From UHGV virus genome UHGV-0046263: a stretch of 36,252 nt of DNA. One strand, given 5' to 3'. Source of the stretch: a virus. The notes below the pieces were generated by a model. The model was not told the origin of the DNA. It searched no databases and worked only from the letters and a program-made list of their open reading frames with translations. The translations under genes were made by a program, and so were the position numbers. This document shows, piece after piece, positions 4,626 through 29,679 of the stretch. Numbering within the stretch: position 1 is the stretch's first letter; each line of letters opens with the position of its first letter.

Positions 4626-6900
4626 AGCCTCCGGGCGTTTTGTCCCTCCGTCAGCATTTGCCGCAGGCACCGGTAAGACGTTTACCGGTGCTTATGCATG
4701 GAACGCGCCACGCGAGGCCGTCGGGCGCGAAAGACCCCTTACACGTGACGAGATGCGTCAGGTGCAAGGGGTTTTATCCACGATTAACCGCCTGCCTTAC
4801 TTTTTGCGCTCGCTGTTTACTTCACGCTATGACTACATCCGGCGCAATAAAAGCCCGGTACACGGGTTTTATTTCCTCACATCCACTTTTCAGCGTCGTT
4901 TATGGCCGCGCATTGAGCGCGTGAATCAGCGCCATGAAATGAACACCGACGCGTCGTTGCTGTTTCTGGCAGAGCGTGACCACTATGCGCGCCTGCCTGG
5001 AATGAATGACAAGGAGCTGAAAAAGTTTGCCGCCCGTATCTCATCGCAGCTTTTCATGATGTATGAGGAACTCAGCGATGCCTGGGTGGATGCGCATGGC
5101 GAAAAAGAATCGCTGTTTACGGATGAGGCGCAGGCTCACCTGTATAGTCATGTTGCTGGCGCTGCACGTGCTTTCAATATTTCCCCGCTCTACTGGAAAA
5201 AATACCGTAAAGGACAGATGACCACGAGGCAGGCATATTCTGCCATTGCCCGCCTGTTTAACGATGAGTGGTGGACTCATCAGCTTAAAGGCCAGCGTAT
5301 GCGCTGGCATGAGGCGTTACTGATTGCTGTCGGGGAGGTCAATAAAGATCGTTCTCCTTATGCCAGTAAACACGCCATTCGTGATGTGCGTGCACGCCGC
5401 CAGGCAAATCTGGAATTTCTTAAATCGTGTGACCTCGAAAACAGGGAAACCGGCGAGCGCATCGACCTTATCAGTAAGGTGATGGGCAGTATTTCTAATC
5501 CTGAAATTCGCCGGATGGAGCTGATGAACACCATCGCCGGTATTGAGCGTTACGCCGCCGCAGAGGGTGATGTGGGGATGTTTATCACGCTGACCGCGCC
5601 GTCAAAGTATCACCCGACACGTCAGGTCGGAAAAGGAGAAAGTAAAACCGTGCAGCTTAATCACGGCTGGAATGATGAGGCATTTAATCCGAAGGATGCG
5701 CAGCGTTATCTCTGCCGTATCTGGAGCCTGATGCGCACGGCATTCAAGGATAATGATTTACAGGTCTACGGTTTGCGAGTCGTCGAGCCACACCACGACG
5801 GAACGCCGCACTGGCATATGATGCTTTTTTGTAATCCACGCCAGCGTAACCAGATTATCGAAATCATGCGTCGCTATGCGCTCAAAGAGGATGGCGACGA
5901 AAGAGGAGCCGCGCGAAACCGTTTTCAGGCGAAACACCTTAACCGGGGCGGTGCTGCGGGATATATCGCGAAATACATCTCAAAAAATATCGACGGCTAT
6001 GCACTGGATGGTCAGCTCGATAACGATACCGGCAGGCCGCTGAAAGACACTGCAGCGGCTGTTACCGCATGGGCGTCAACGTGGCGTATCCCGCAATTTA
6101 AAACGGTTGGCCTGCCGACAATGGGGGCTTACCGTGAACTACGCAAATTGCCTCGCGGCGTCAGCATTGCTGATGAGTTTGACGAACGCGTCGAGGCTGC
6201 ACGCGCCGCCGCAGACAGTGGTGATTTTGCGTTGTATATCAGCGCGCAGGGCGGGGCAAATGTCCCGCGCGATTGTCAGACTGTCAGGGTCGCCCGTAGC
6301 CCGTCGGATGACGTTAACGAGTACGAGGAAGAAGTCGAGAGAGTGGTCGGCATTTACGCGCCGCATCTCGGCACGCGTCATATTCATATCACCAGAACGA
6401 CGGACTGGCGCATTGTGCCGAAAGTTCCGGTCGTTGAGCCGTTGACTTTAAAAAGCGGCATCGCCGCGCCTCGGAGTCCTGTCAATAACTGTGGAAAGCT
6501 CACCGGTGGTGATACTTCGTCACCGGCTCCCACGCCTTCTGAACACGCCGTAGCAGTGCTTAATCTGGTAGATGACGGTGTTATCGAATGGAATGACCAG
6601 GAGGTCGTGAGGGCGCTCAGAGGTGCATTAAAACACGGTCTGAGAAGACCAAACCGTCAGCAAAGAAACGGAAGCCCGTTAAAACCGCATGAAATAGCGC
6701 CATCGGCCAGACTGACCCGGTCGGAACGAATGCAAATTACCCGTATCCGCGTTGACCTTGCTCAGAACGGTATCAGGCCACAGCGATGGGAGCTTGAGGC
6801 GCTGGCTCGGGGAGCGACCATAAATTATGGCGGGAAAAAATTCACGTATCCGGTCATTGATGAGTGGCCGGGATTCTCAACAGTAATGGAGTGGACATAA
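4615..6900 (+). CDS. A: Replication initiation endonuclease A (rolling-circle initiator)
   Basis: 762 aa from the ATG at 4615 (P2 gpA is 761 aa); contains HxH-type motifs (PHWHMMLF) and a tyrosine-rich active-site region (GYIAKYISKN). Confidence 0.85.
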   Translation: MAVKASGRFVPPSAFAAGTGKTFTGAYAWNAPREAVGRERPLTRDEMRQVQGVLSTINRLPYFLRSLFTSRYDYIRRNKSPVHGFYFLTSTFQRRLWPRIERVNQRHEMNTDASLLFLAERDHYARLPGMNDKELKKFAARISSQLFMMYEELSDAWVDAHGEKESLFTDEAQAHLYSHVAGAARAFNISPLYWKKYRKGQMTTRQAYSAIARLFNDEWWTHQLKGQRMRWHEALLIAVGEVNKDRSPYASKHAIRDVRARRQANLEFLKSCDLENRETGERIDLISKVMGSISNPEIRRMELMNTIAGIERYAAAEGDVGMFITLTAPSKYHPTRQVGKGESKTVQLNHGWNDEAFNPKDAQRYLCRIWSLMRTAFKDNDLQVYGLRVVEPHHDGTPHWHMMLFCNPRQRNQIIEIMRRYALKEDGDERGAARNRFQAKHLNRGGAAGYIAKYISKNIDGYALDGQLDNDTGRPLKDTAAAVTAWASTWRIPQFKTVGLPTMGAYRELRKLPRGVSIADEFDERVEAARAAADSGDFALYISAQGGANVPRDCQTVRVARSPSDDVNEYEEEVERVVGIYAPHLGTRHIHITRTTDWRIVPKVPVVEPLTLKSGIAAPRSPVNNCGKLTGGDTSSPAPTPSEHAVAVLNLVDDGVIEWNDQEVVRALRGALKHGLRRPNRQQRNGSPLKPHEIAPSARLTRSERMQITRIRVDLAQNGIRPQRWELEALARGATINYGGKKFTYPVIDEWPGFSTVMEWT

Positions 6901-7053
6901 TGGCAAAAATTCACGCAATATTAGATAATTTCGTACTGTATATATTTAGTGTTATTGAAAAATCTCGACAGAAAGAGTTTTCTGTATTTAATCGTTGCTT
7001 GCAGTTTGGTATTGTTTACCATGATTGTTTGTTAAGTGCTTTAAAGGTGAGGA

Positions 7054-8892
7054 ATGAGCGAGTTTGATGTTTTTTCTATTTCAGTTGATGATTTTAAAAA
7101 AAGTGAATACGCCAGTATATTATCATCGCCAAGAAGTTATTCTCATTTTGATATGGAGTCTTATTTTGTTCAGTTGTTGTCATCTTACAAGCTAAAAAAC
7201 GATGTAAGTTCTTGGCGGCTTTGCTATTTATTACGTGCGTTGTTTAATTTTAAATTTTCTAGGTCTGGTGATATTATCGGTTTTGAGCCAAAAATCATTC
7301 TCTATCCTGAGAGGGGCTATAGGCCTTCAGATTATAAGGAGAGTTTTTCAACAATATTAACTTGTATTAAAGAAAACTCCGATAATCCTTATATTATATC
7401 TAGGGTGTGTGATGTTTTATGGATAAATAACCGTAAGGATATAGACTCTGCCAATAAAGCAATAGAGTCATATTCTCTAATGGTTAATGATGCTTGCGAT
7501 ACTTTAATAGAAAAACAAGAGTCAGGTGATATCCATATTTTTGATGTTGTTGACTGCTTGGATAGAGGTATCGCAATATCGCGCATGCTTATTGGCAGGA
7601 AAAAACAACTACAAGGGGGGATAGTTGATTCGACATTAAGGTTATATCATGTATTAATAGACTCTGGTATATTCACCGGTGTATTAAGAGTTTCTGAAAT
7701 TCTTTATAAGAATAATTTATTGTGTCCCTTGCAATTGGCTGAGAATGCAGAAAAGATAGCTGATGAGCATTGTGGAGCGTCTTATTTTGATGCAGTGAAA
7801 AAATTGTTTTATTTTGCGTCTGAATTATATGTTAAAAACGATATGGAAGAGCAAGGAAGACGGTGCAGAATTAAAGCGTCAGAAATAACATTGGCTCAAT
7901 TTGAACAGTCTTCATCTTCAATATTGAAGGCTCATTGGTTAAGAGTTGCTCTTGGCGAATTTAGAGCAATTGGTGGAATGAATGAAGAAATTAAAAAGAT
8001 TAGAGAGGAATTGAATTCTATTCGAGATCAAATCAATGATGAAATGCACTTCTTTGCAATACCAATGGATCTTAGTGATGTTATCGCTCAGAAAGAGCAT
8101 GTTTATAATCAATTGGATTTCTCAAGGGTAATTAAAACTTTAATTGCTAGATTTAAGATTGTAAGTGCCAGTGAAATTATGGAAAGAGCTCGTTCCGATG
8201 CTAAAAAACATTTTTTTCTTAATATGAGTGAAACGGTTGTTTATGATGATAGAGGGCGCGTTGTAGCAAGTCGTTCACCTTTGGATCCTGCGGGGGATAT
8301 AAGTTTAAATGATGCTTGTGCAAATTATTTAAGAACTAGTAACATTGAGCATCAGGTCTATGTTTGTGGTGAGTTTGAAGTCGTTAGGCAAAGTGTGTTG
8401 GCTAGGTATTCATTAAATGAAAATACATTTGACCCAATCTCACAACAAAGTGCATTTGTTCCACCTGGGTATGCAGAAATATTTTCTTTGGGGTTTTATA
8501 AGCTTTGGCAGGGAGATTATGTGTCTGCCTGTTATTTGTTATTGCCGCAATTGGAGAATTCAATTAGATGGATTTTAGAATTAAGAAGAAAAGAAACAAC
8601 GAAAATAGATGTGTCGCTTTTTGAGGAGGCTACTAGCCTATCTCAAATGCTTGCAAATTATAGGAGTGAAATGGAAGGTGTTTTTGATAGTGATCATGTA
8701 TTGACTATGGATTTATTGTTCAATATGAAAGGTGGTGCTGCAATTAGACACACGATGGCTCATGGCAGGTATACTGTAAATCATTGTTATCAACCAACTT
8801 CAGTTTTTGCCTGTGTCTTTATCTTTTATTTAACTTGTTTGCCTTTATTTAGTGTATGGGAAGATAAAGTTGAACCTTATCTGGCTGATTAA
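7054..8892 (+). CDS. AT-rich cargo protein, 612 aa, unknown function; possible C-terminal HEPN-like domain (candidate abortive-infection/defence effector)
   Basis: Strong ribosome-binding site AAGGTGAGG 4 nt upstream of the ATG; long uninterrupted ORF; AT-rich relative to the phage backbone; sits where tin/old lie in P2; C-terminal LENSIRWIL...AAIRHTMAHG contains an Rx4H motif. Confidence 0.7.
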   Translation: MSEFDVFSISVDDFKKSEYASILSSPRSYSHFDMESYFVQLLSSYKLKNDVSSWRLCYLLRALFNFKFSRSGDIIGFEPKIILYPERGYRPSDYKESFSTILTCIKENSDNPYIISRVCDVLWINNRKDIDSANKAIESYSLMVNDACDTLIEKQESGDIHIFDVVDCLDRGIAISRMLIGRKKQLQGGIVDSTLRLYHVLIDSGIFTGVLRVSEILYKNNLLCPLQLAENAEKIADEHCGASYFDAVKKLFYFASELYVKNDMEEQGRRCRIKASEITLAQFEQSSSSILKAHWLRVALGEFRAIGGMNEEIKKIREELNSIRDQINDEMHFFAIPMDLSDVIAQKEHVYNQLDFSRVIKTLIARFKIVSASEIMERARSDAKKHFFLNMSETVVYDDRGRVVASRSPLDPAGDISLNDACANYLRTSNIEHQVYVCGEFEVVRQSVLARYSLNENTFDPISQQSAFVPPGYAEIFSLGFYKLWQGDYVSACYLLLPQLENSIRWILELRRKETTKIDVSLFEEATSLSQMLANYRSEMEGVFDSDHVLTMDLLFNMKGGAAIRHTMAHGRYTVNHCYQPTSVFACVFIFYLTCLPLFSVWEDKVEPYLAD

Positions 8893-9053
8893 TGGAAGTT
8901 GATTTAGGTATTTTGGCATTTATCTTTCTGCGTGCAATATGTGCATGGTTTTGCATGTGCCGGAGTTGCATGTTCCGGCCGTGCGTCCGCCAGGACGGGC
9001 GTGGCTCAAAAGCGGTATTGCACCTGCATTAAAACCGCCCCACGAAGCGGGCG

Positions 9054-9072
9054 GGCGAGGCGGGGAAAGCAC
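9054..9072. other. cos site (19-nt cohesive end, P2/P4 type) within a GC-rich structured packaging region (about 8930..9110)
   Basis: Exact match to GGCGAGGCGGGGAAAGCAC, the P2 cohesive end as I recall it; flanked by repeated TTGCATGT motifs and GC-rich hairpins. Confidence 0.55.
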
Positions 9073-9110
9073 TGCGCGCTAAACGATGTCGCTGGCTTGC
9101 AGTTACCCGG

Positions 9111-9139
9111 TTGAAATTCTTATTTTTTTGTTGCATTAT
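9111..9139 (+). promoter_or_regulatory. Sigma70-like promoter candidate (TTGAAA, 17-bp spacer, CATTAT) upstream of the RT module
   Basis: Hexamers and spacing read directly from the sequence; no experimental support. Confidence 0.3.
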
Positions 9140-9146
9140 TCTTAGC

Positions 9147-9395
9147 GCACCAGCGATTCGCTTGGTATGCGGCAGTCAACAACATTAAATTGTCAGTTTT
9201 TGCTTTTACAAAAAAGCGTCCACTATGGACCTATCAGCGAGGCCCCACCGTCGTCAACTACGATGGTGCCGTAGCCGACGACATTACGTACGGTCGAAAG
9301 ATAGCAGAGGCTGTTGCTGACAATTGTTGATGTAAGCATCTCTGCTGTTCCACCCTTGAGTATGGGAAGACCGTACGTAACTTTGAATTTGAATG
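9147..9395 (+). ncRNA. Candidate structured ncRNA upstream of the RT (possible retron msr/msd)
   Basis: About 250 nt non-coding between the promoter candidate and the RT start, with hairpin GCTTTT-ACAA-AAAAGC (9202..9217), a 13-bp imperfect stem (9250..9262 / 9270..9282) and a perfect 12-bp inverted repeat TTACGTACGGTC / GACCGTACGTAA (9284..9295 / 9369..9380) ending 17 nt before the RT ATG. Boundaries are not defined. Confidence 0.3.
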
Positions 9396-9397
9396 GT

Positions 9398-10588
9398 ATG
9401 TTTATGGATAAATTTAAACCATACAGCAAATCCAATGCTCCTATCACAACACTTGAAAAGTTGTCAAAGGCTTTATCGATTTCTGTTGAAGAGCTTAAAG
9501 CTATTGCAGAATTATCATTAGATGAGAAATATACTCTAAAAGAAATTCCCAAAATTGACGGAAGCAAACGGATTGTCTACTCCCTACATCCTAAAATGAG
9601 ATTATTACAGAGTAGAATTAATAAACGTATTTTTAAGGAATTGGTTGTTTTTCCTTCATTTTTGTTTGGTTCAGTTCCCAGTAAAAATGATGTTTTAAAT
9701 TCTAATGTCAAACGTGACTATGTTTCATGTGCAAAGGCTCATTGTGGAGCAAAAACAGTTCTCAAGGTGGATATAAGTAATTTTTTCGATAATATCCATA
9801 GAGATCTGGTTAGGAGCGTGTTTGAGGAGATATTGCATATTAAGGATGAGGCTCTTGAATACTTGGTGGATATATGTACTAAGGATGATTTTGTCGTACA
9901 GGGGGCCTTAACATCAAGCTATATAGCAACTTTGTGTTTATTCGCTGTTGAAGGGGATGTGGTAAGACGTGCGCAGAGGAAAGGACTTGTTTATACGCGT
10001 TTGGTAGATGATATTACCGTGTCATCTAAAATAAGTAATTATGATTTTTCTCAAATGCAAAGCCATATAGAGAGGATGCTTTCTGAGCATGACTTGCCGA
10101 TAAATAAGCACAAAACAAAAATATTTCACTGTTCATCTGAACCTATAAAAGTACATGGTTTAAGAGTTGACTATGACTCACCTCGACTACCATCCGATGA
10201 AGTCAAAAGAATCAGGGCATCTATACATAATTTGAAATTACTGGCGGCAAAAAATAACACAAAAACAAGTGTTGCATACAGAAAAGAATTCAATAGATGT
10301 ATGGGGAGAGTGAATAAGCTTGGCCGTGTTGGGCATGAAAAATATGAATCATTCAAGAAACAGTTGCAGGCAATAAAACCGATGCCATCTAAAAGAGATG
10401 TTGCTGTGATTGATGCAGCTATAAAAAGTTTAGAGTTGTCGTATTCGAAAGGTAATCAAAATAAACATTGGTATAAAAGAAAATATGATTTGACGAGATA
10501 TAAGATGATTATTCTTACTCGCTCTGAATCATTTAAAGAAAAACTGGAGTGTTTTAAATCTAGATTGGCATCTTTAAAACCATTATGA
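9398..10588 (+). CDS. Retron-type reverse transcriptase (about 396 aa from the ATG at 9398)
   Basis: RT motifs in canonical order: LSKALSISVEEL, GSKRIVYSLHPKMRLLQ, CAKAH (NAxxH-like), LKVDISNFFDNI, QGALTSSYIATL, YTRLVDDITVS (YADD box reads LVDD), INKHKTKI, VHGL (VTG-like). Start uncertain (TTG 9314, ATG 9362, 9398 or 9404). Confidence 0.85.
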   Translation: MFMDKFKPYSKSNAPITTLEKLSKALSISVEELKAIAELSLDEKYTLKEIPKIDGSKRIVYSLHPKMRLLQSRINKRIFKELVVFPSFLFGSVPSKNDVLNSNVKRDYVSCAKAHCGAKTVLKVDISNFFDNIHRDLVRSVFEEILHIKDEALEYLVDICTKDDFVVQGALTSSYIATLCLFAVEGDVVRRAQRKGLVYTRLVDDITVSSKISNYDFSQMQSHIERMLSEHDLPINKHKTKIFHCSSEPIKVHGLRVDYDSPRLPSDEVKRIRASIHNLKLLAAKNNTKTSVAYRKEFNRCMGRVNKLGRVGHEKYESFKKQLQAIKPMPSKRDVAVIDAAIKSLELSYSKGNQNKHWYKRKYDLTRYKMIILTRSESFKEKLECFKSRLASLKPL

Positions 10589-11292
10589 ATGCAAATATTA
10601 GACTTCTCAAATATATTGTCGGTGTGTCGTCAGCTCTTTTTTTGATTTTTTCGCTAATTTCTCTTTTTGAAACTATTCAGAATGAAAAGCTATATGAGCG
10701 TGATATATGCTTCGATAGCCAGTGCTTAAAATTTTTTGCGGAAAAAACATCTGGTATAGTAATGTATTTTCAGGCGTTTGGATGGCTTATAACAACTTTT
10801 GTTACCGTTTTTGGTGTTATGATTGCTTTGATGACATATAACGCTGGAGTTAAAAATAATAATAATAGTAATTACACTAGTCATCTGACGATGTTTAGAG
10901 AATTTGCAAGTGCTGAGTTAACTAAAAGAAGTAGCATCTATCCAGAGAAAGTTAATTTTTTTAGATGGTATAGGGTTATGTTCCCTGAAGCGCAAGGCGG
11001 TGATATATCTGTTTCGAGAGATTATCTAGAAATAATATCTAGAATCAAATGTGTTATTGAGGAAGCCAATGCACATATTACAGAGGAAAATAAAGACTAT
11101 AAATATAAAACTCATCAGAGAAAAATGATGGCTGTTTTGGATGAAATCGGTATATCGATTAGTAATGGGCCCAAAAATATTTTTATTGAGGTTGAGAGTC
11201 AAATTTTGGATTATATCGATACTATTAATTTGTCATTTTGTCACTCCTCATCAGTGATAGAATTAAGTAGAGTAAAAAGGAAGTATATATAG
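10585..11292 (+). CDS. Two-transmembrane-helix protein, 235 aa, translationally coupled to the RT (candidate effector)
   Basis: ATGA start/stop overlap with the RT; hydrophobic segments IVGVSSALFLIFSLISLF and FQAFGWLITTFVTVFGVMIALMTY; AT-rich. Confidence 0.75.
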   Translation: MNANIRLLKYIVGVSSALFLIFSLISLFETIQNEKLYERDICFDSQCLKFFAEKTSGIVMYFQAFGWLITTFVTVFGVMIALMTYNAGVKNNNNSNYTSHLTMFREFASAELTKRSSIYPEKVNFFRWYRVMFPEAQGGDISVSRDYLEIISRIKCVIEEANAHITEENKDYKYKTHQRKMMAVLDEIGISISNGPKNIFIEVESQILDYIDTINLSFCHSSSVIELSRVKRKYI

Positions 11293-11294
11293 TT

Positions 11295-11323
11295 AAGTTG
11301 GCGGGATTGCATTCCGCCAACTT
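11295..11323. terminator. Bidirectional terminator hairpin between the 2-TM gene and Q
   Basis: Perfect 10-bp stem AAGTTGGCGG / CCGCCAACTT with a 9-nt loop, followed by an A/T-rich tract. Confidence 0.5.
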
Positions 11324-11334
11324 TATATATTTAC

Positions 11335-12354
11335 TTATAAGTTATAATCAAGGGATTTTATGACTTCCATATCTAACCATTCATTTATTGACTTTATTCT
11401 CTCCTGTAATGGAGTGAGTTCATTGCGGACAAAGACCTTTGCCACTTTTTCAATATCTCCTAGTGACCCGACATTCTCCGGCTTACCGCCCATCAACTGA
11501 AAGGGGATGCGGTGTGCGTCCAGGAGATCTGCGGCGCTGACTTTTTTGATATTAAAAAAATCGTCCTTCGTCGCCACTTCACTGAGGGGGATAATTTTAA
11601 TGCCGTCGGCTTTCCCCTGTGGGGCATAGAGAAACAGGTTTTTAAAGTTGTTGCGGCCTTTCGACTTCACCATGTTTTCGCGAAGCATTTCGATATCGTT
11701 GCGATCCTGCACGGCATCGGTGACATACATGATGTATCCGGCATGAGCGCCGTTTTCGTAATACTTGCGGCGGAACAGCGTGGCCGACTCATTCAGCCAG
11801 GCAGAGTTAAGGGCGCTGAGATATTCCGGCAGGCCGTACAGCTCCTGATTGATATCCGGCTCCAGCAGGTGAAACACGGAGCCGGGCGCGAAGGCTGTCG
11901 GCTCGTTGAAGGACGGCACCCACCAGTAAACATCCTCCTCCACGCCACGGCGGGTATATTTTGCCGGTGAGGTTTCCAGTCTGATGACCTTACCGGTGGT
12001 GCTGTAACGCTTTTCCAGAAACGCATTACCGAACACCAGAAAATCCAGCACAAAGCGGCTGAAATCCTGCTGGGAAAGCCACGGATGCGGGATAAATGTC
12101 GAGGCCAGAATATTGCGTTTGACGTAAATCGGCGAGCTGTGATGCACGGCAGCACGCAGGCTTTTCGCCAGACCGGTAAAGCTGACCGGCGGCTCATACC
12201 ATCTGCCGTTACTGATGCACTCGACGTAATCCAGAATGTCACGGCGGTCGAGTACCGGCACCGGCTCGCCAAAGGTGAATGCCTCCATTTTCGGGGCGCT
12301 GGCGGTCATTTTTTTTGCCGCAGGTTGCGGTGTTTTCCCTTTTTTCTTGCTCAT
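11335..12354 (-). CDS. Q: Portal protein
   Basis: 339 aa, position and orientation as P2 gpQ; start overlaps the P stop. Confidence 0.85.
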   Translation of the reverse strand: MSKKKGKTPQPAAKKMTASAPKMEAFTFGEPVPVLDRRDILDYVECISNGRWYEPPVSFTGLAKSLRAAVHHSSPIYVKRNILASTFIPHPWLSQQDFSRFVLDFLVFGNAFLEKRYSTTGKVIRLETSPAKYTRRGVEEDVYWWVPSFNEPTAFAPGSVFHLLEPDINQELYGLPEYLSALNSAWLNESATLFRRKYYENGAHAGYIMYVTDAVQDRNDIEMLRENMVKSKGRNNFKNLFLYAPQGKADGIKIIPLSEVATKDDFFNIKKVSAADLLDAHRIPFQLMGGKPENVGSLGDIEKVAKVFVRNELTPLQERIKSINEWLDMEVIKSLDYNL

Positions 12355-14126
12355 CAGTAAAACTCCAGAATGGTGGATGTCAGCGGGGTGCTGATACCGG
12401 CGGTGAGTGGCTCATTTAACAGGGCGTGCATGGTCGCCCAGGCGAGGTCGGCGTGGCTGGCTTCCTCGCTGCGGCTGGCCTCATAGGTGGCGCTGCGTCC
12501 GCTGCTGGTCATGGTCTTGCGGATAGCCATAAACGAGCTGGTGATGTCGGTGGCGCTGACGTCATATTCCAGACAGCCACGGCGGATGACGTCTTTTGCC
12601 TTGAGCACCATTGCGGTTTTCATTTCCGGCGTGTAGCGGATGTCGCGCGCGGCGGGATAGAACGAGCGCACGAGCTGGAACACGCCGACACCGAGGCCGG
12701 TGGCATCAATACCGATGTATTCGACGTTGTATTTTTCGGTGAGTTTGCGGATGGATTCAGCCTGAGTGGCAAAGTCCATGCCTTTCCACTGGTGACGCTC
12801 AAGGATCCTGAATTTGCCACCGGCCACCACCGGCGGTGCCAGTACCACGCATCCTGCGCTGTCGCCACGGTGTGACGGGTCGTAACCAATCCATACCGGT
12901 CGGGAGCCGAACGGATTTGCGGCAAACGGCGCATAGTCTTCCCATTCTTCCAGCGTGTCGACCATGCAGCGTTGCAGCTCCTCAAACGGGAACACCGACG
13001 CCTTGTCGTCAACAAATTCACACATGAACAGGTTTTTAAAATCGTCGGCGCTGTTTTCGCGTTTGAGCTGCTCAATGTCGAACAGCGTGCAGCCGCCTTT
13101 CAGGGCGTCCTCAATGGTGACAATCTGTCGCCACTGGCCGTCCGCACAGAGAAGCCCACCGGCAAGGGCGTTATGACTGACGTCGATTTCCACGCGTTCG
13201 GCGGCGCTGGCGCGTCCCCGGTTGAACAGTTCACCCGACCAGAACGGGTAGGCGTCGTGTGCCAGCGTGGACGGGGTGGAGAAATAGGTCGAGCGCAGGT
13301 GACTCTGTGAGGCCATACCTGATGCCACCTTACGCAGTACCTGAAAATTCGGGATCCAGAAAATCTCGTCGACGTACAGGTCGCCGTTATGGCTCTGCGC
13401 GGTGTTGGAGTTGGTGCCGAGAAAAATCAGTTTTGCGCCGTTATTGCCCAGGACAATCGGGTCACCGGTCAGGTCAACGTCAACCAGACGGGCAAAGGCG
13501 ATGATGTATTCGCGGAACACATACGCCTGCGTTTTACTGGCCGACAGAAAAATCTGGTTATGACCGGTTTTCAGGGCGCGCAGCAGCGCCTCGCGGGAAA
13601 AATAAAACGTCGCGCCAATCTGGCGGGATTTCAGGATATCGCGGATGCGGTGCTCAAGCCCGGCGCGATACCAGTGCAACTGATATTCGAAAGACTGCTC
13701 AAAGAAAATCTGCTCCAGCTTTTCGATGGCCTCGTCACTGAAAAAATTCTTTTTCGGTTTGCGCCGCCCGCCTTTGTTGCGGTTAGCGACGTTCGGATTA
13801 AGGTCTGCCTCGTTGCCGGTCTGGCTGTAGCGGTTGACCCGTGCCAGTCGTTCAATCTGGCGTCCCAGCAGGTCAATTTCCTTGAAGTCACCGCCGGTTT
13901 TCTGCGGTTTGATGATGAGCTGGGTCAGCCGCGCTTCCAGACTCATTTCGACACGGCTGATGGGGGCAACGCTGTCCCAGCCGTCGCGCTGTTTCCAGCT
14001 CTGCACCGTCGGGCGTTTCATCTGCAACATGGCGGCAATCTGCGGCACGGAAAACCCCTGCCAGTACAGCAGCGCCGCCTGACGACGCGGGTCGTGTAAA
14101 AGAGTGGTGTCTGTGGTGATGGTCAT
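12354..14126 (-). CDS. P: Terminase large subunit (ATPase)
   Basis: 590 aa from MTITTDTTLL (same length as P2 gpP); GAGGT ribosome-binding site; the longer ORF to 14156 is less likely. Confidence 0.9.
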   Translation of the reverse strand: MTITTDTTLLHDPRRQAALLYWQGFSVPQIAAMLQMKRPTVQSWKQRDGWDSVAPISRVEMSLEARLTQLIIKPQKTGGDFKEIDLLGRQIERLARVNRYSQTGNEADLNPNVANRNKGGRRKPKKNFFSDEAIEKLEQIFFEQSFEYQLHWYRAGLEHRIRDILKSRQIGATFYFSREALLRALKTGHNQIFLSASKTQAYVFREYIIAFARLVDVDLTGDPIVLGNNGAKLIFLGTNSNTAQSHNGDLYVDEIFWIPNFQVLRKVASGMASQSHLRSTYFSTPSTLAHDAYPFWSGELFNRGRASAAERVEIDVSHNALAGGLLCADGQWRQIVTIEDALKGGCTLFDIEQLKRENSADDFKNLFMCEFVDDKASVFPFEELQRCMVDTLEEWEDYAPFAANPFGSRPVWIGYDPSHRGDSAGCVVLAPPVVAGGKFRILERHQWKGMDFATQAESIRKLTEKYNVEYIGIDATGLGVGVFQLVRSFYPAARDIRYTPEMKTAMVLKAKDVIRRGCLEYDVSATDITSSFMAIRKTMTSSGRSATYEASRSEEASHADLAWATMHALLNEPLTAGISTPLTSTILEFY

Positions 14127-20571: not shown

Positions 20572-21357
20572 TTATGAGTGATTTTTATTTGATGCTTTGT
20601 ATTCTAAAACCTTCTTATTGGCGTAAAAGAATTTTGTATATGACAGGAATATAACCAGACCTGAAGTGAAATAGACGAGGGATAGTATTAATAATGCTTT
20701 TTTGTGACTGTTATTATCTTTAATCTCCTGGCTTAACCATTCGGAGTCCTCCTCGTTTAGCTGTAAGAGCTTATTGCAGGCGATCTCAGGAAGTGTGTCT
20801 TTTATAAATACGTTTTGCAGTCTCTTGCAATCGGCAAGGCTATAAGTTTTATTAAATTCAACTGCTTTATTTTTGAAGGATAAAAGAACTTTGTCACTAT
20901 AAACATAGTACATCATGTTTTTATATGGTATGCCTATGGCATCCCTTACTATAACGGATTGTTCGTTGTGTATGTAACATGCGAGGAGAATGTAAAAAAT
21001 ACTGGCCAGAATTACAATTATTGTTTTAATTATGTGTGGTGGTTTTGTTATGTCACCCCAGATGCGAGTAAGGAAAAAATACGATGTTTTTAGTTTTCCA
21101 TCAATCAGTCCCTGCTGTATCATTCTCACATTTTCAATGCCTGATACATTGATTCCATTAATTATTTTAAATAGTTGAATGTCGCGCCACTCGCGGTCAA
21201 GTCTTTTTAATTTTTTGTCTGAATATCCAAAATTGAAATAATGTGCAATAAGCCTCATAAGGTTACTTTTACCAAAGCTAAAAAATGCTAATACTGCAAA
21301 GCTACAAAGGAAAAAAACGATTAGCCCCCACACATTAGTCACATTATAGCTGACCAT
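20572..21357 (-). CDS. AT-rich moron: 261-aa integral membrane protein of unknown function (P2 orf30 position)
   Basis: Opposite strand to the late genes; strong AAGGAG ribosome-binding site; hydrophobic segments at the N-terminus, middle and C-terminus; AT-rich. Confidence 0.7.
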   Translation of the reverse strand: MVSYNVTNVWGLIVFFLCSFAVLAFFSFGKSNLMRLIAHYFNFGYSDKKLKRLDREWRDIQLFKIINGINVSGIENVRMIQQGLIDGKLKTSYFFLTRIWGDITKPPHIIKTIIVILASIFYILLACYIHNEQSVIVRDAIGIPYKNMMYYVYSDKVLLSFKNKAVEFNKTYSLADCKRLQNVFIKDTLPEIACNKLLQLNEEDSEWLSQEIKDNNSHKKALLILSLVYFTSGLVIFLSYTKFFYANKKVLEYKASNKNHS

Positions 21358-25921: not shown

Positions 25922-26449
25922 ATGCAGCATTTAAAAAATATTACTGCGGGTAATCCAAAAACTGTTGCCCAATATCAACTGACAAAAAATTTTGATGTTA
26001 TCTGGTTATGGTCCGAAGAGGGAAAAAACTGGTATGAGGAAGTAAGTAATTTTCAGGAAGACACGATAAAGATTGTTTACGACGAGAATAATATAATTGT
26101 CGGCATCACCAGAGATGCTTCAACGCTTAACCCTGAAGGTTTCAGCGTTGTCGAGGTTCCTGATATTACCTCCAACCGACGTGCTGATGACTCAGGTAAA
26201 TGGATGTTTAAGGATGGTGCCGTGATTAAGCGGATTTATACGGCAGATGAACAGGAGCAACAGGCAGAATCACAAAAGGCAGCTTTACTTTCCGAAGCTG
26301 AATCCGTGATTTTGCCGCTGGAACGCGCTGTCAGGCTGAATATGGCGACGGATGAGGAACGCAGCCGACTGGAAGCATGGGAACGCTACAGCGTTCTGGT
26401 CAGTCGTGTGGATCCTGCAAATCCCGAATGGCCGGAAATGCCGCAATAA
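25922..26449 (+). CDS. G: Tail fibre assembly chaperone G
   Basis: 175 aa immediately downstream of H. Confidence 0.8.
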
Positions 26450-26712
26450 GTTGTATGATCTCTGGTGTGAGCTTACATATCTATAGCACAGAGTAAAGCC
26501 TAATCTGACAGTCCGCTATGTGCCAAGAGCGGACATTCCTGACCAAGTTATGTTAATCTGCCTGTAGAAAGCCTTGGTTAACTGCTCTACGTTTTTCCTA
26601 CTTGCTTCTAACGCTTAAATATTCGGAAAGCAAAAAACATGTAACATGAGGCTTGGTAAACAACCCACTCGGTTCATCATTAGATAAAATTAACAGCAAT
26701 ATAGGTGAGCAA

Positions 26713-27714
26713 ATGTTTGAAGAGCATAATGAAGATAAAACAGTTCAGGACAGCGTAAGAAAAATGTTTTTAGCCTCTATTCCAGAGCGTCAGAATGAAC
26801 TGGATGAGTTCTGGTCTAAATTTAACATGACCTTCCAAAATCATAGCGATAATCATACAGACGGTAAATTTATTTTTGATGCGGGGATGTATCGATTTAT
26901 CCGCTTCAATCATCGTGTTTTGCGCACGTTCTGGATAGGAACATTTGCTGCAATGGCGGGCTACGAAGCAATAAACACTGAGCAAAATAAAAAAATTGAA
27001 GACATTATCGATAAAAGGGATTCTATTTTAGATCTTTTTGACTCAAAGAAAATATCATTAGTCTCAACCGAGTCAGAATTACATGTTTTACTCGAGGAGC
27101 TACAGGAAGAACTTGCTGATTTCAGTTCGGCAGACTTCGTAAACTTTGAACAGTTAATCTGCGCTTTTGAAAACACGGCTAAAGATGAGGTACCGGATGA
27201 AAAACCACTACCAATAGGAATTCCTGAACCTGGCACCATGCCTGACAGTAAAATCGAACCAGTTAAAAGAGCAACAGCTGAATTAGCAATTATTGCTGCT
27301 GCTTGGGCATTTTTGCATGAAGTCCGACATATCATTCATCAGCAGGAAGGTACCAGTTATGATATGAATGAATTCACACAAGAACAAGCTCATAATGAAG
27401 AGTTCTCATGTGATGAGTTTGCAACTAAATTCATCCTTGACCATATAGATAATTACTGTGAAGAGTCTATGTATGACCGTGTGTTGGTGAGCAGGAAAAG
27501 AAGACTTTCTATATACTGTGCATTATTCAGCGTTACTATGTTAGGTAAAAACAACTGGGGTTTTTCAAAATCTCACCCTTCACTTCAGGATAGAATAAAT
27601 AAAGTAAAAGCATTAATGAAAGAGCCTGATGATGAGGTTCTCGAATATATTGTGGAGACTATGTTTAAGTCTATTGCTAGAATCTGGCCAACCGTTCCTA
27701 CTGTCAAATTCTGA
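26713..27714 (+). CDS. AT-rich cargo protein, 333 aa, with an HExxH zinc-metallopeptidase-like motif (Z/fun position)
   Basis: AGGTGAG ribosome-binding site upstream of the ATG at 26713; HEVRH within AWAFLHEVRHIIHQQE; acidic helical N-terminal half; followed by an intrinsic terminator. Confidence 0.7.
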   Translation: MFEEHNEDKTVQDSVRKMFLASIPERQNELDEFWSKFNMTFQNHSDNHTDGKFIFDAGMYRFIRFNHRVLRTFWIGTFAAMAGYEAINTEQNKKIEDIIDKRDSILDLFDSKKISLVSTESELHVLLEELQEELADFSSADFVNFEQLICAFENTAKDEVPDEKPLPIGIPEPGTMPDSKIEPVKRATAELAIIAAAWAFLHEVRHIIHQQEGTSYDMNEFTQEQAHNEEFSCDEFATKFILDHIDNYCEESMYDRVLVSRKRRLSIYCALFSVTMLGKNNWGFSKSHPSLQDRINKVKALMKEPDDEVLEYIVETMFKSIARIWPTVPTVKF

Positions 27715-28237: not shown

Positions 28238-29344
28238 TTATTCATCGTATTTAGGTGAGAAAACACTTATTTCTTTGGACCAGATGCCGAAACCTTCAAT
28301 ATCAAGGGTGAACTCAATAGGTAATTTGCTATCTTTATATTCAGTTGGTATCACCCGAATATTTTTGACATTTTTTACACAATGTAATGGAGTGTATTTG
28401 TTTTTTGTGATTGAATCAAAAATTGGTATACAAGATAAGCGTATAACTTCTAATTTAACTAATTTGTCTAGCCACATTGTTCCTTCAAAGTCATGGAAGA
28501 ACTGTCTTATTCTGGAACCCAATGTTGGATGGGAATAAATCTCACCTCTAATGGTGGAAAGGGAAGTATATATTTTTTGTGGTAAAGCTTCAAACCCCGA
28601 TATCGTAGCTATATCACCAGAACTATTTACAAATAAATCGCCTGTCGTGAAAATATCTAAATCCATTGGGAGGCTATTGCAATTGATGCGCGGAGTGTCT
28701 ATTTCAACAGGGACGATTACTTCATAGCTATCTGGTAATTTATTTAATTTTATTGGTGCTGATAACAAACGCCCCTCACCAAGTTGATTAACTAGAATAA
28801 ATTTTTCTTCGGTAGGGATGGAGTGGAATCTTTCGTTGAAAGATATTAACTTAGATAAATCGCCAGTAAAGAAGTTTGCAAATTTTATAGTCCACTCATT
28901 GGTTGAGATTCCGGTAAGCTCTCCGAAAACGATAATGTCTATACCTATTGCAATGAAATCATTATGTTTGGTTGATGAAGAACCATTGCTCACCTCTTTT
29001 TTAATCTCTTCTTCGTGGGCTTTCTTCATTTCTTTAAGAATTTCTGCTGTATATCTAATTTCATCTCTATCAATTTCAACGCTGTGATTAACACACATCC
29101 AGATGCCATTATTTATATCTTTCCTTTCATCTGGTGTTTGATTAGGATCATATCGTCTTGCTAATGGCCCAGGAGCTGCGGCATGAATGTGCGCAGCTAC
29201 CCCAATATTTGTGATAGATGTTAAGGATTCATCACTGGGGCCAACTGTAAGCTGATTACAACCGGGGAATGAGCACCTATAACCAGCCCGTAGTGCTAGA
29301 GCTCTTACAGTTTTTGAGCTGAAATCATCGCGTGTTTTAGACAT
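28238..29344 (-). CDS. AT-rich cargo protein, about 368 aa, with an N-terminal HNH nuclease domain and a C-terminal domain of unknown function
   Basis: CxxC (CSFPGC) ... AAHIHAA ... NGIWMCVNHS arrangement typical of HNH; start taken at the ATG at 29344 (MSKTR); the ORF could extend to a TTG at 29380. Confidence 0.7.
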   Translation of the reverse strand: MSKTRDDFSSKTVRALALRAGYRCSFPGCNQLTVGPSDESLTSITNIGVAAHIHAAAPGPLARRYDPNQTPDERKDINNGIWMCVNHSVEIDRDEIRYTAEILKEMKKAHEEEIKKEVSNGSSSTKHNDFIAIGIDIIVFGELTGISTNEWTIKFANFFTGDLSKLISFNERFHSIPTEEKFILVNQLGEGRLLSAPIKLNKLPDSYEVIVPVEIDTPRINCNSLPMDLDIFTTGDLFVNSSGDIATISGFEALPQKIYTSLSTIRGEIYSHPTLGSRIRQFFHDFEGTMWLDKLVKLEVIRLSCIPIFDSITKNKYTPLHCVKNVKNIRVIPTEYKDSKLPIEFTLDIEGFGIWSKEISVFSPKYDE

Positions 29345-29679
29345 GTTTAAAGCCTTTAAAAATAAAAAGACACCTAACAATATAATTATGCTTACCTTTC
29401 AGCAGCATCTTACAACGGTAAACCCATGTTCCTTTATATACTGCATATTAGCAGTTAAAAATGAACCTGAACAAGAGGAAGTTAGATGAAAGTGGACAAG
29501 AGTTACATCAAATCGGGGTTGTATTAGCAATACGCCAAGAATCACTATTTCATATAGATCATGTTAGATACTAAACCGCCCCTTAACTTCCGCTCCTCGC
29601 TCAAAGCAGACTGTCAGATTTGATAGCGTTTTGGCTATGTAAATTGTCAGTCGGGAAATAAGTGAGTACAAATCATGAC

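Follow-up and report, generated by a model that had tools for sequence, protein, structure and literature searches.

Positions 9095–11334 of the window (the whole 36,252-nt stretch of DNA analyzed here) are almost certainly a complete copy of retron Ec48 (Retron-Eco6, type IV), as judged from sequence comparison. It forms cargo of a P2-like prophage inserted beside pflA and occupies the cos-proximal hotspot of that prophage. A structured ncRNA (~9146–9380) is followed by the reverse transcriptase (RT) gene (9404–10588) and the overlapping gene of a two-transmembrane-helix (2-TM) effector (10585–11292). The first-pass annotation had proposed a novel or variant defence system extending over 9398–11292. 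These limits omit the upstream ncRNA, and the protein matches given below identify a known, well-studied anti-phage retron. The main features are the following:

9054..9072, plus strand: P2-type cohesive end (cos), GGCGAGGCGGGGAAAGCAC, identical to P2 nt 1–19 (cosL); left edge of the cargo slot, not a part of the retron
9111..9139, plus strand: promoter-like site from a consensus scan, –35 TTGAAA at 9111–9116, 17-nt spacer, –10 CATTAT at 9134–9139
~9146..9380, plus strand: retron ncRNA (msr-msd leader), ~235 nt, from inverted repeats, folding and covariation in 32 homologs
9404..10588, plus strand: Ec48 reverse transcriptase, 394 aa from the PGAP start, from PADLOC, Pfam and the published-sequence match
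10585..11292, plus strand: Ec48 2-TM effector, 235 aa, with two N-terminal TM helices and an all-helical cytoplasmic domain
11295..11323, no strand assigned: 13-bp G+C-rich stem-loop with T-rich sequence, from a terminator scan, between the effector stop and the Q stop

Reverse transcriptase and membrane effector

The two frames reported earlier, 9398..10588 and a 235-aa frame ending at 11292, were confirmed together with their ATGA overlap (10585–10588). Position 9398 is one of three possible RT starts, the in-frame ATG codons lying at 9362 (408 aa), 9398 (396 aa) and 9404 (394 aa, chosen by PGAP). The best PADLOC model for the RT was RT_IV (E = 8.4e-177, 586 bits, residues 8–395 of 396). The next type was RT_V (1.9e-63), and all next-best models were likewise retron RTs. 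Pfam RVT_1 was detected at 1.4e-31. The effector matched PADLOC 2TM_IV (4.1e-85), both proteins being covered near full length, and the NCBIfam equivalog retron_Ec48_2TM (NF038235) at 226.7 bits against a cut-off of 65. Since the RVT_1 match is this strong and the PADLOC and NCBIfam scores lie far over their thresholds, the ORFs are not chance. The question left open in the first-pass annotation, whether the pair matches an already described 2-TM retron, has a clear answer: it matches Ec48.

Retron Ec48 was reportedly described by Mao et al. in 1996/1997. Gene order and the ATGA overlap are identical to those of this retron (Mao et al. 1996/1997; Millman et al. 2020). The RT showed no mismatch to the 'Ec48-RT' of PMC10482982 (supplement 2) over 399 printed residues, all but the last 9 of the published sequence. 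The effector is letter-for-letter the sequence named TM48_ECOLX in UniRef ("Retron Ec48 transmembrane protein"). Compared with the reference Ec48 operon, the effector and the printed stretch of the RT showed neither a frameshift nor a substitution. No difference from Ec48 was detected; only annotation choices vary, namely the RT start (9404, 9398 or 9362) and the extent of the ncRNA.

Inspection of the RT sequence revealed the motif series LSKALSISVEEL, GSKRIVYSLHPKMRLLQ, CAKAH, LKVDISNFFDNI, QGALTSSYIATL, INKHKTKI and VHGL in this order. The series had been listed correctly in the first-pass annotation, except for the YADD box: the catalytic box reads LVDD (..YTRLVDDITV..), and YADD is not present. 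The peculiarities described for Ec48 (RT-Eco6), CAKAH for NAxxH, VHG for VTG and LVDD (PMC6868368), are all shared. The RT_IV score, RVT_1, these three motifs and the 399-residue match place the enzyme among the type IV (clade 3) retron RTs. The literature numbering of the Ec48 RT, with D216/D217, corresponds to the 408-aa form that begins at ATG 9362. In this frame, the catalytic DD occupies positions 216/217, the same residues that Millman et al. mutated (10.1101/2020.06.21.156273).

The effector contains two hydrophobic segments of 19–23 residues at ~7–30 and 62–86, which bears out the two N-terminal TM helices noted earlier. It has the features of a type IV effector (Mestre cluster 826_1), a 2-TM protein encoded next to and overlapping the RT gene, and dozens of RefSeq genomes label it 'retron Ec48 family effector membrane protein'. 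A fold search with the effector model returned generic helical bundles only, and no structure of an RT–msDNA–effector complex was found in the PDB copy searched. The protein presumably acts on the inner membrane. A sensor module combined with a small effector carrying two N-terminal TM helices is also the design of CBASS and of other abortive-infection systems that use 2-TM effectors, and inner membrane damage is presumed for both the CBASS-like effectors and the Ec48 effector.

A 2.4-kb block, leader and promoter region included, occurs at ~100% identity (99.6–100%) in 57 of 5,426 complete E. coli genomes, a genome being counted if at least 80% of the block was present. Several RefSeq E. coli genomes carry 100% identical DNA, annotated there as retron Ec48 family, and the block was also found in phage pro147 (99.7% identity). 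This conservation bears on the possibility that the locus is a decayed or silenced Ec48 remnant, non-functional in the prophage through, for example, loss of the promoter or the ncRNA. In favor of a remnant, the promoter-like site agrees with the consensus at only 9 of 12 positions. However, both ORFs are intact and match functional proteins, the near-identical block in the 57 genomes and pro147 extends through leader and promoter, and every covariation-supported leader helix is intact in the window. We consider a remnant very unlikely.

An Abi-type or UG/DRT-type defence RT (AbiA, AbiK or Abi-P2; DRT2 or DRT3), acting without an msr-msd RNA, is less probable still. The RT in the variable locus of P2-like phages is presumably Abi-P2. 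Its occurrence there (Odegrip et al. 2006, as cited in PMC9122126) would favor such an enzyme, as would weak NCBIfam matches to Drt3a (40 bits), Drt2 (35 bits) and AbiA (24 bits). The curated cut-offs are far higher (200, 390 and 250 bits, respectively), whereas the retron model RT_IV leads the PADLOC ranking, its partner is the Ec48 2-TM equivalog, and the gene pair is preceded by a conserved structured leader. The family scores and the identity to the Ec48 RT argue decisively against an Abi or DRT enzyme. The poorest candidate is a mobile group II intron or other selfish retroelement RT that neighbors a membrane protein by chance. In its favor are a weak match to NCBIfam group_II_RT_mat (TIGR04416, 45 bits) and the RVT_1 domain, which is common to all reverse transcriptases. 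It can be dismissed: the curated cut-off is 300 bits, the protein is without a maturase or endonuclease domain, no intron RNA was found in 6500–12500 (E ≤ 1), and the RT stop overlaps the effector start in a gene pair kept across many genera.

The cos-proximal cargo slot

The Ec48 copy lies in a P2-like prophage with integrase, Cox, gpA, cos, Q, P, capsid and tail genes. Similarity to P2 ends at 9094, 22 nt past cos, and portal gene Q, on the minus strand, ends at 11335. The cos-to-Q spacer of P2 measures 167 nt, whereas ~2.24 kb follow position 9094 here. The insert (9095–11334) has a G+C content of 34.9%, compared with 55.4% in the neighboring Q and P genes. The first-pass annotation was right in both respects, an AT-rich insert and a place where P2 has only a short spacer. 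The stem-loop at 11295–11323 is likely the terminator of the retron operon and, on the opposite strand, of the Q/P operon; P2 has tQ at the equivalent position, of which it would be the counterpart.

The cos-proximal gpA–gpQ interval is a published cargo hotspot of P2-like phages (Rousset et al. 2022, PMC9122126). Retrons Ec67 and Ec86 were placed in the equivalent slot of a 186-like prophage by Dodd and Egan (1996), as cited in PMC6868368. The same logic applies to Ec67 and Ec86 in 186-related prophages and to the P2 hotspot: the short interval from cos to the terminator of the packaging operon gives way to a retron cassette. The cassettes themselves differ, Ec86 being type II-A with an NDT effector and Ec67 an RT-Toprim fusion, whereas the present retron is type IV with a 2-TM effector. 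Several further candidate defence genes were seen in the other variable slots of the prophage, as in a typical multi-cargo P2-like element.

Leader RNA and candidate msDNA template

The ncRNA lies between cos and the RT start. In the homolog alignment, the promoter-like site upstream falls where other type IV retrons have good TTGACA/TANNNT pairs, and transcription probably starts at ~9144–9147. A weaker alternative promoter candidate was found as TTGCAG at 9097 and TTATTT at 9120. The leader contains the following elements:

9149–9155 / 9159–9166: 5' hairpin
9175–9180 with 9326–9331 and 9188–9197 with 9316–9325: long-range helix Pa
9202–9217: stem-loop 1
9218–9230: stem-loop 2
9232–9283: variable hairpin region
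9284–9295 / 9369–9380: inverted repeat I1, perfect over 12 bp
9300–9310 / 9339–9349: hairpin H6, with the 3' strand of Pa in its loop, giving a pseudoknot
9353–9355 / 9364–9366: hairpin H7

The structure supported by covariation is common to the window and 31 other type IV retrons. RNAalifold on these 32 homologs gave compensatory changes in 35 of 40 pairs, and 52 of the 59 tested pairs of the structure listed above showed changes on both sides. With the pseudoknot included, 87% of the cells were paired, compared with 34–46% in slid controls; none of 500 shuffles reached 87%. RNAduplex found the long-range duplex between the Pa regions in all homologs (32/32), a few of them in a different register. 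The fold of 9284–9380 yielded z = –5.5, and I1 encloses two hairpins immediately 5' of the RT start. Rfam has no model for a type IV msr-msd, and its search over 6500–12500 matched no family at E ≤ 1. The conserved leader supplies the cognate structured ncRNA of a type IV retron. It overlaps the pipeline-derived Eco6 ncRNA string of the retron census supplement, which corresponds to 9126–9311 of the window with a few letters differing. Our comparative analysis takes the end past 9311, and the ncRNA very likely extends to 9380. It appears to be a ~235-nt pseudoknotted molecule in which a helix of ~16–20 bp joins the 5' arm to a hairpin loop farther downstream. On this comparative evidence, the canonical a1/a2 picture and the 9126–9311 annotation seem to understate both the size and the intricacy of the type IV ncRNA.

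Two leader elements, an AG dinucleotide and an AUG, do not vary among the homologs and serve no obvious coding purpose. The AUG, at 9362, is present in 32/32 homologs but shares the RT reading frame in only 4 of them; it was therefore rejected as a conserved RT start and is probably not the real one. The 408-aa form of the literature therefore probably begins at a conserved, non-coding AUG within the ncRNA.

Two features concern the template of the msDNA:

9248..9295, minus strand: candidate msd of the 48-nt msDNA-Ec48, with a 13-bp hairpin (9250–9262 / 9270–9282) in the reverse-complement product
9273..9274, plus strand: invariant AG dinucleotide in all 32 homolog leaders (alignment columns A131 and G132)

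The msd most likely lies at 9248–9295, its ends being uncertain by several nucleotides; 9236–9283 is the alternative. Folded as DNA, the candidate forms the 13-bp hairpin within exactly 48 nt. In 23 of 32 homologs, the cDNA of this region gave a better fold than the sense DNA, whereas the other helices favor the sense strand. Among close relatives, most substitutions are transitions that keep G·T pairs in the cDNA hairpin, with exceptions in two of nine variant states. The AG at 9273–9274 may supply the branching G, or it may act as a recognition or termination signal; it did not fit any canonical a1/a2 geometry.

Four other arrangements were examined as well. A census-style a1 (9126–9145) pairing with 9292–9311 was rejected: its best duplex (–8.0 kcal/mol) is weaker than the mean of 500 shuffles (–11.6), and this a1 lacks conservation among the homologs and runs into the conserved promoter. 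If I1 were a canonical a1/a2, G9296 would be the branch point and 9321–9368 the msd. This arrangement has the classical geometry, the G lying at most 2 nt from the arm in 29 of 32 homologs by our reading of the alignment. It is nevertheless disfavored, as the DNA product would be nearly unstructured (–3.8 kcal/mol, z = –0.65), the region is under RNA-sense selection, and the census donor for Eco6 maps to 9255–9261; by the census design rule, donors sit within the sequenced RT-DNA. Pa as a1/a2 with a template from 9316 is disfavored too: a 48-nt product would end at 9269 without the hairpin, and a 67-nt product would suit the structure but not the known length. The last arrangement, in which the invariant G9274 is the branch G and a local hairpin takes the part of a1/a2, was disfavored because it would make stem-loops 1 and 2 the template, and both are under RNA-sense selection.

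Reverse transcription through the 5' arm of I1 (9284–9295) might remodel the leader and so couple msDNA synthesis to RT/effector translation or to termination, with non-canonical priming. We offer this as a tentative and rather unlikely model by analogy with the remodeling proposed for the type VI 'hyRNA' (Retron-Vpa2; 10.1101/2025.10.22.683967). Type VI and type V (Retron-Sen1) are sister groups of type IV in RT clade 3. The type VI leader has a similar layout, a first arm with stem-loops and a reverse-transcribed hairpin, then two stem-loops, one with a conserved AUG, and, at the 3' end, an inverted repeat folding back on that first arm. Type IV differs in having neither a small-protein ORF nor an HTH gene, and AUG 9362 opens no conserved ORF. 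Eco6 also produces abundant constitutive msDNA, whereas type VI does not.

Expected function in the lysogen

The function given here is transferred from published experiments on matching proteins. The RT would use the ncRNA as primer and template to form the 48-nt msDNA-Ec48, a branched product with a 2'–5' linkage to a G of the RNA. Ec48 defence against lambda, T7 and other phages needs RT activity (D216/D217) and both TM helices of the effector, and it is triggered by phage RecBCD inhibitors (lambda Gam, T7 gp5.9) or RecB loss, leading to cell death or growth arrest (10.1101/2020.06.21.156273). Lambda Gam triggers both type IV and type V retrons (10.1101/2025.10.22.683967). Because RecBCD inhibitors or RecB loss activate Ec48, the retron would guard RecBCD. 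By analogy with the matching proteins, RecBCD inhibition would activate the 2-TM effector and result in abortive infection. The earlier proposal of an abortive-infection retron is thereby supported, with a retron-type RT translationally coupled to a 2-TM effector between cos and Q. The picture of a toxin restrained by msDNA is not established for Eco6, since its accessory protein alone was non-toxic when expressed (Palka et al., PMC8989520).

PADLOC, NCBIfam, Pfam (PF28197) and Swiss-Prot already list Ec48, and the prime editor PE6a descends from its RT; as a discovery, the locus carries little weight. What is gained is a clean annotation of a prophage whose Ec48 operon is intact and complete, ncRNA included, and occupies a known hotspot, where the cassette would keep competing phages out of the prophage's lysogen.

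Identity of the RT and effector genes

The retron reverse transcriptase (RT) and its neighbor are, as judged by their sequence matches, retron Ec48 (Retron-Eco6, type IV) itself. The system predicted in the first-pass annotation, an abortive-infection retron with an RT and a membrane effector, was of the right kind according to PADLOC, NCBIfam and the published Ec48 work. Reading of the sequence confirmed the RT ORF, the 235-aa ORF, their ATGA overlap and the two transmembrane (TM) helices (hydrophobic stretches at residues ~7–30 and ~62–86). At the sequence level, a structured non-coding RNA (ncRNA, or leader; ~9146–9380), the RT and the translationally coupled 2-TM effector form a single operon.

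Features of the retron block
9054–9072: P2 cohesive end (cos) GGCGAGGCGGGGAAAGCAC, from comparison with P2
9111 (TTGAAA) and 9134 (CATTAT): promoter-like site between cos and the RT start, from a consensus scan
9362, 9398 or 9404 (in-frame starts) to 10588, + strand: RT ORF
10585–11292, + strand: effector ORF (235 aa); its start codon and the RT stop overlap (ATGA)
11295–11323: terminator-like hairpin 3' of the effector, from a terminator scan
Ending at 11335, − strand: portal gene Q

Whether the pair matches an already described 2-TM retron had been left to a profile search, and the answer was positive. PADLOC assigned the RT to RT_IV over nearly its full length (8.4e-177) and the effector to 2TM_IV (4.1e-85), while the NCBIfam equivalog retron_Ec48_2TM scored 226.7 bits on the effector against a cut-off of 65. 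Pfam detected RVT_1 in the RT. The effector had no match in the Pfam scan because the scanned release predates PF28197 (Retron_Ec48_antiviral). In precomputed Pfam data, PF28197 lies on effector homologs beside type IV RTs in Enterobacter and several sequencing-run assemblies (loci L082–L087). AbiA, DRT2, DRT3a and group II intron maturase were rejected as RT families, with scores far below the curated NCBIfam cut-offs.

The proposal of a novel or variant system did not survive. The supplement to the prime-editor paper on PE6 (PMC10482982) prints 399 residues of Ec48-RT, and the 408-aa reading of the RT (ATG 9362) had no mismatch to any of them. For the effector, an exact-sequence look-up gave 'Retron Ec48 transmembrane protein, TM48_ECOLX' as its UniRef name. 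The RT motifs named earlier were found in the stated order, except that the supposed YADD box reads LVDD (YTRLVDDITV). Simon et al. (PMC6868368) list the substituted NAxxH asparagine and VHG for VTG as oddities of Ec48, and for an LVDD version of the YXDD box they cite Mao et al. 1996. The RT has each of these peculiarities (CAKAH, VHG and LVDD). Its catalytic aspartates are D216/D217 in the 408-aa frame, exactly the positions mutated in the Ec48 study of Millman et al. (10.1101/2020.06.21.156273).

Experiments on matching proteins showed that Ec48 defence requires RT catalysis and the effector TM helices (10.1101/2020.06.21.156273). In the same study, lambda and T7 escape mutants mapped to the RecBCD inhibitors Gam and gp5.9, expression of either inhibitor was lethal to Ec48-bearing cells, and recB mutants could not receive the retron plasmid. 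Gam was confirmed again as a trigger in 2025 (10.1101/2025.10.22.683967). The Eco6 accessory protein alone was non-toxic (Palka et al., PMC8989520). On the results of the 2020 study, Ec48 guards RecBCD, whose inhibition leads to aborted infection. Neither the RT nor the effector had a structure in a search of a PDB copy.

Location and other cargo of the prophage

The P2-like prophage adjoins pflA and has the order integrase, repressor, Cox, gpA, cos, Q, P, capsid, lysis and tail genes. Similarity to P2 stops at 9094. The AT-rich insertion noted in the first-pass annotation was borne out: the cos-to-Q gap is just 167 nt in P2, whereas here it holds the retron block (9095–11334). The G+C content of 9095–11334 is 34.9%, compared with 55.4% in the adjoining Q and P genes. 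The 2.4-kb block occurred in 57 of 5,426 complete E. coli genomes (99.6–100% identity), with the effector annotated in RefSeq as 'retron Ec48 family effector membrane protein', and the deposited phage pro147 carries it at 99.7% identity. Rousset et al. (PMC9122126) described the cos-proximal gpA–gpQ interval of P2-like phages as a hotspot with 1,650 gene arrangements, including retrons. As cited from Dodd and Egan (1996; ref 59 of PMC6868368), Ec67 and Ec86 replace cos-to-terminator DNA in a 186-related prophage. The location is therefore expected.

Between gpA and cos, in the old/tin slot of P2, lies an AT-rich 612-aa ORF (7054–8892, + strand, 34% G+C) with matches to DUF7380 (Pfam, 1.9e-24) and the PADLOC defence candidate PDC-S39 (2e-68). 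Its sole annotation is 'DUF7380 domain-containing protein', and 139 sequences fall in its cluster at 90% identity. The ORF probably represents another, uncharacterised defence cargo in the same hotspot. A low-GC island (37–43% G+C) follows the tail-fibre assembly gene (25922–26449) in a Z/fun-type variable slot. It encodes a 353-aa Lit-like/Peptidase_U49 protein (26653–27714, + strand; PADLOC Lit 6.7e-11, Pfam 3.8e-07) and a 380-aa protein (28238–29380, − strand) with an N-terminus resembling the endonuclease domain of CBASS effectors, SduA and PDC-M68A (9.7e-24). Both are candidates for further anti-phage genes. A 261-aa ORF (20572–21357, − strand) lies in a locally low-GC stretch, on the opposite strand within the tail/baseplate cluster, at what looks like an orf30-type moron slot; it had no match in Pfam or PADLOC, and RefSeq lists it as 'hypothetical protein'.

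Structure of the leader RNA

A retron requires an ncRNA, which the first-pass coordinates missed. The DNA from cos to the RT start contains a strongly structured region. The homolog set comprised type IV RT homologs from 43 loci (35–57% identity) and six closer loci. From these, 32 leaders were aligned, and RNAalifold and explicit pair counting supported the elements listed below.

Leader elements from RNAalifold and pair counts (for Pa, also RNAduplex)
9149–9155 / 9159–9166: 5' hairpin
9175–9180 with 9326–9331, and 9188–9197 with 9316–9325: long-range helix Pa
9202–9217 and 9218–9230: stem-loops 1 and 2
9232–9283: variable hairpin region
9284–9295 / 9369–9380: perfect 12-bp inverted repeat I1
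9300–9310 / 9339–9349: hairpin H6
9353–9355 / 9364–9366: hairpin H7

I1 was 92.5% paired, with compensatory changes in 10/10 counted pairs. The two halves of Pa showed such changes at 6/6 and 9/10 pairs, and the location of its 3' strand in the H6 loop creates a pseudoknot. With RNAduplex, each of the 32 homologs gave a duplex between the Pa regions (−11 to −29 kcal/mol); the register differed in a few. Over the whole structure, 87% of the cells were paired versus 34–46% in slid controls, and none of 500 shuffles matched the observed pairing. The Eco6 ncRNA string printed in a retron census (~9126–9311) differs in stopping before the Pa 3' strand. The layout resembles the 'hyRNA' of the sister type VI retrons (10.1101/2025.10.22.683967), sharing a first arm that carries the msd hairpin, two stem-loops (one with an AUG) and a 3' repeat folding back.

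Beyond the 5' hairpin, the invariant positions were A9273–G9274, C9355 and A9362–U9363. The AG falls in the variable hairpin region and is kept in 32/32 type IV leaders. The AUG at 9362–9364, within H7, is likewise kept in all 32, while it is in the RT frame in only four, including this one; its conservation is therefore that of an RNA element, not of a start codon. In the other 28 homologs, it opens ORFs of just 2–84 codons. The 408-aa Ec48 RT of the literature (D216/D217 numbering) thus probably starts at a conserved RNA motif, not at the real start codon; 9404 (the PGAP annotation, 394 aa) or 9398 is the more likely start.

The probable msDNA template and significance

Several lines of evidence point to the variable hairpin region as the most likely source of the msDNA. 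The reverse complement of 9248–9295 is exactly 48 nt long and folds into a 13-bp DNA hairpin. In this region, the cDNA fold was more stable than the sense DNA in 23 of 32 homologs. Stem-loops 1 and 2, H6 plus H7, and the 5' hairpin all favored the sense strand, the preference expected of structures formed by RNA alone. In close relatives, the 5' strand of the hairpin has changed mostly by transitions, giving an A·C mismatch in RNA and a G·T pair in cDNA; two of the nine tallied variant states would break the cDNA pair. As branching guanosines, G9296 (after I1), G9196 (at the Pa end) and the invariant G9274 each failed at least one test. The a1 implied by the census annotation is located within the promoter, and its pairing is weaker than that of shuffled sequence.

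The pseudoknotted, extended type IV leader model with its invariant AG and AUG is the one by-product that is mildly novel. The system itself is already known and catalogued and lies in a known hotspot, so it holds little interest as a discovery.
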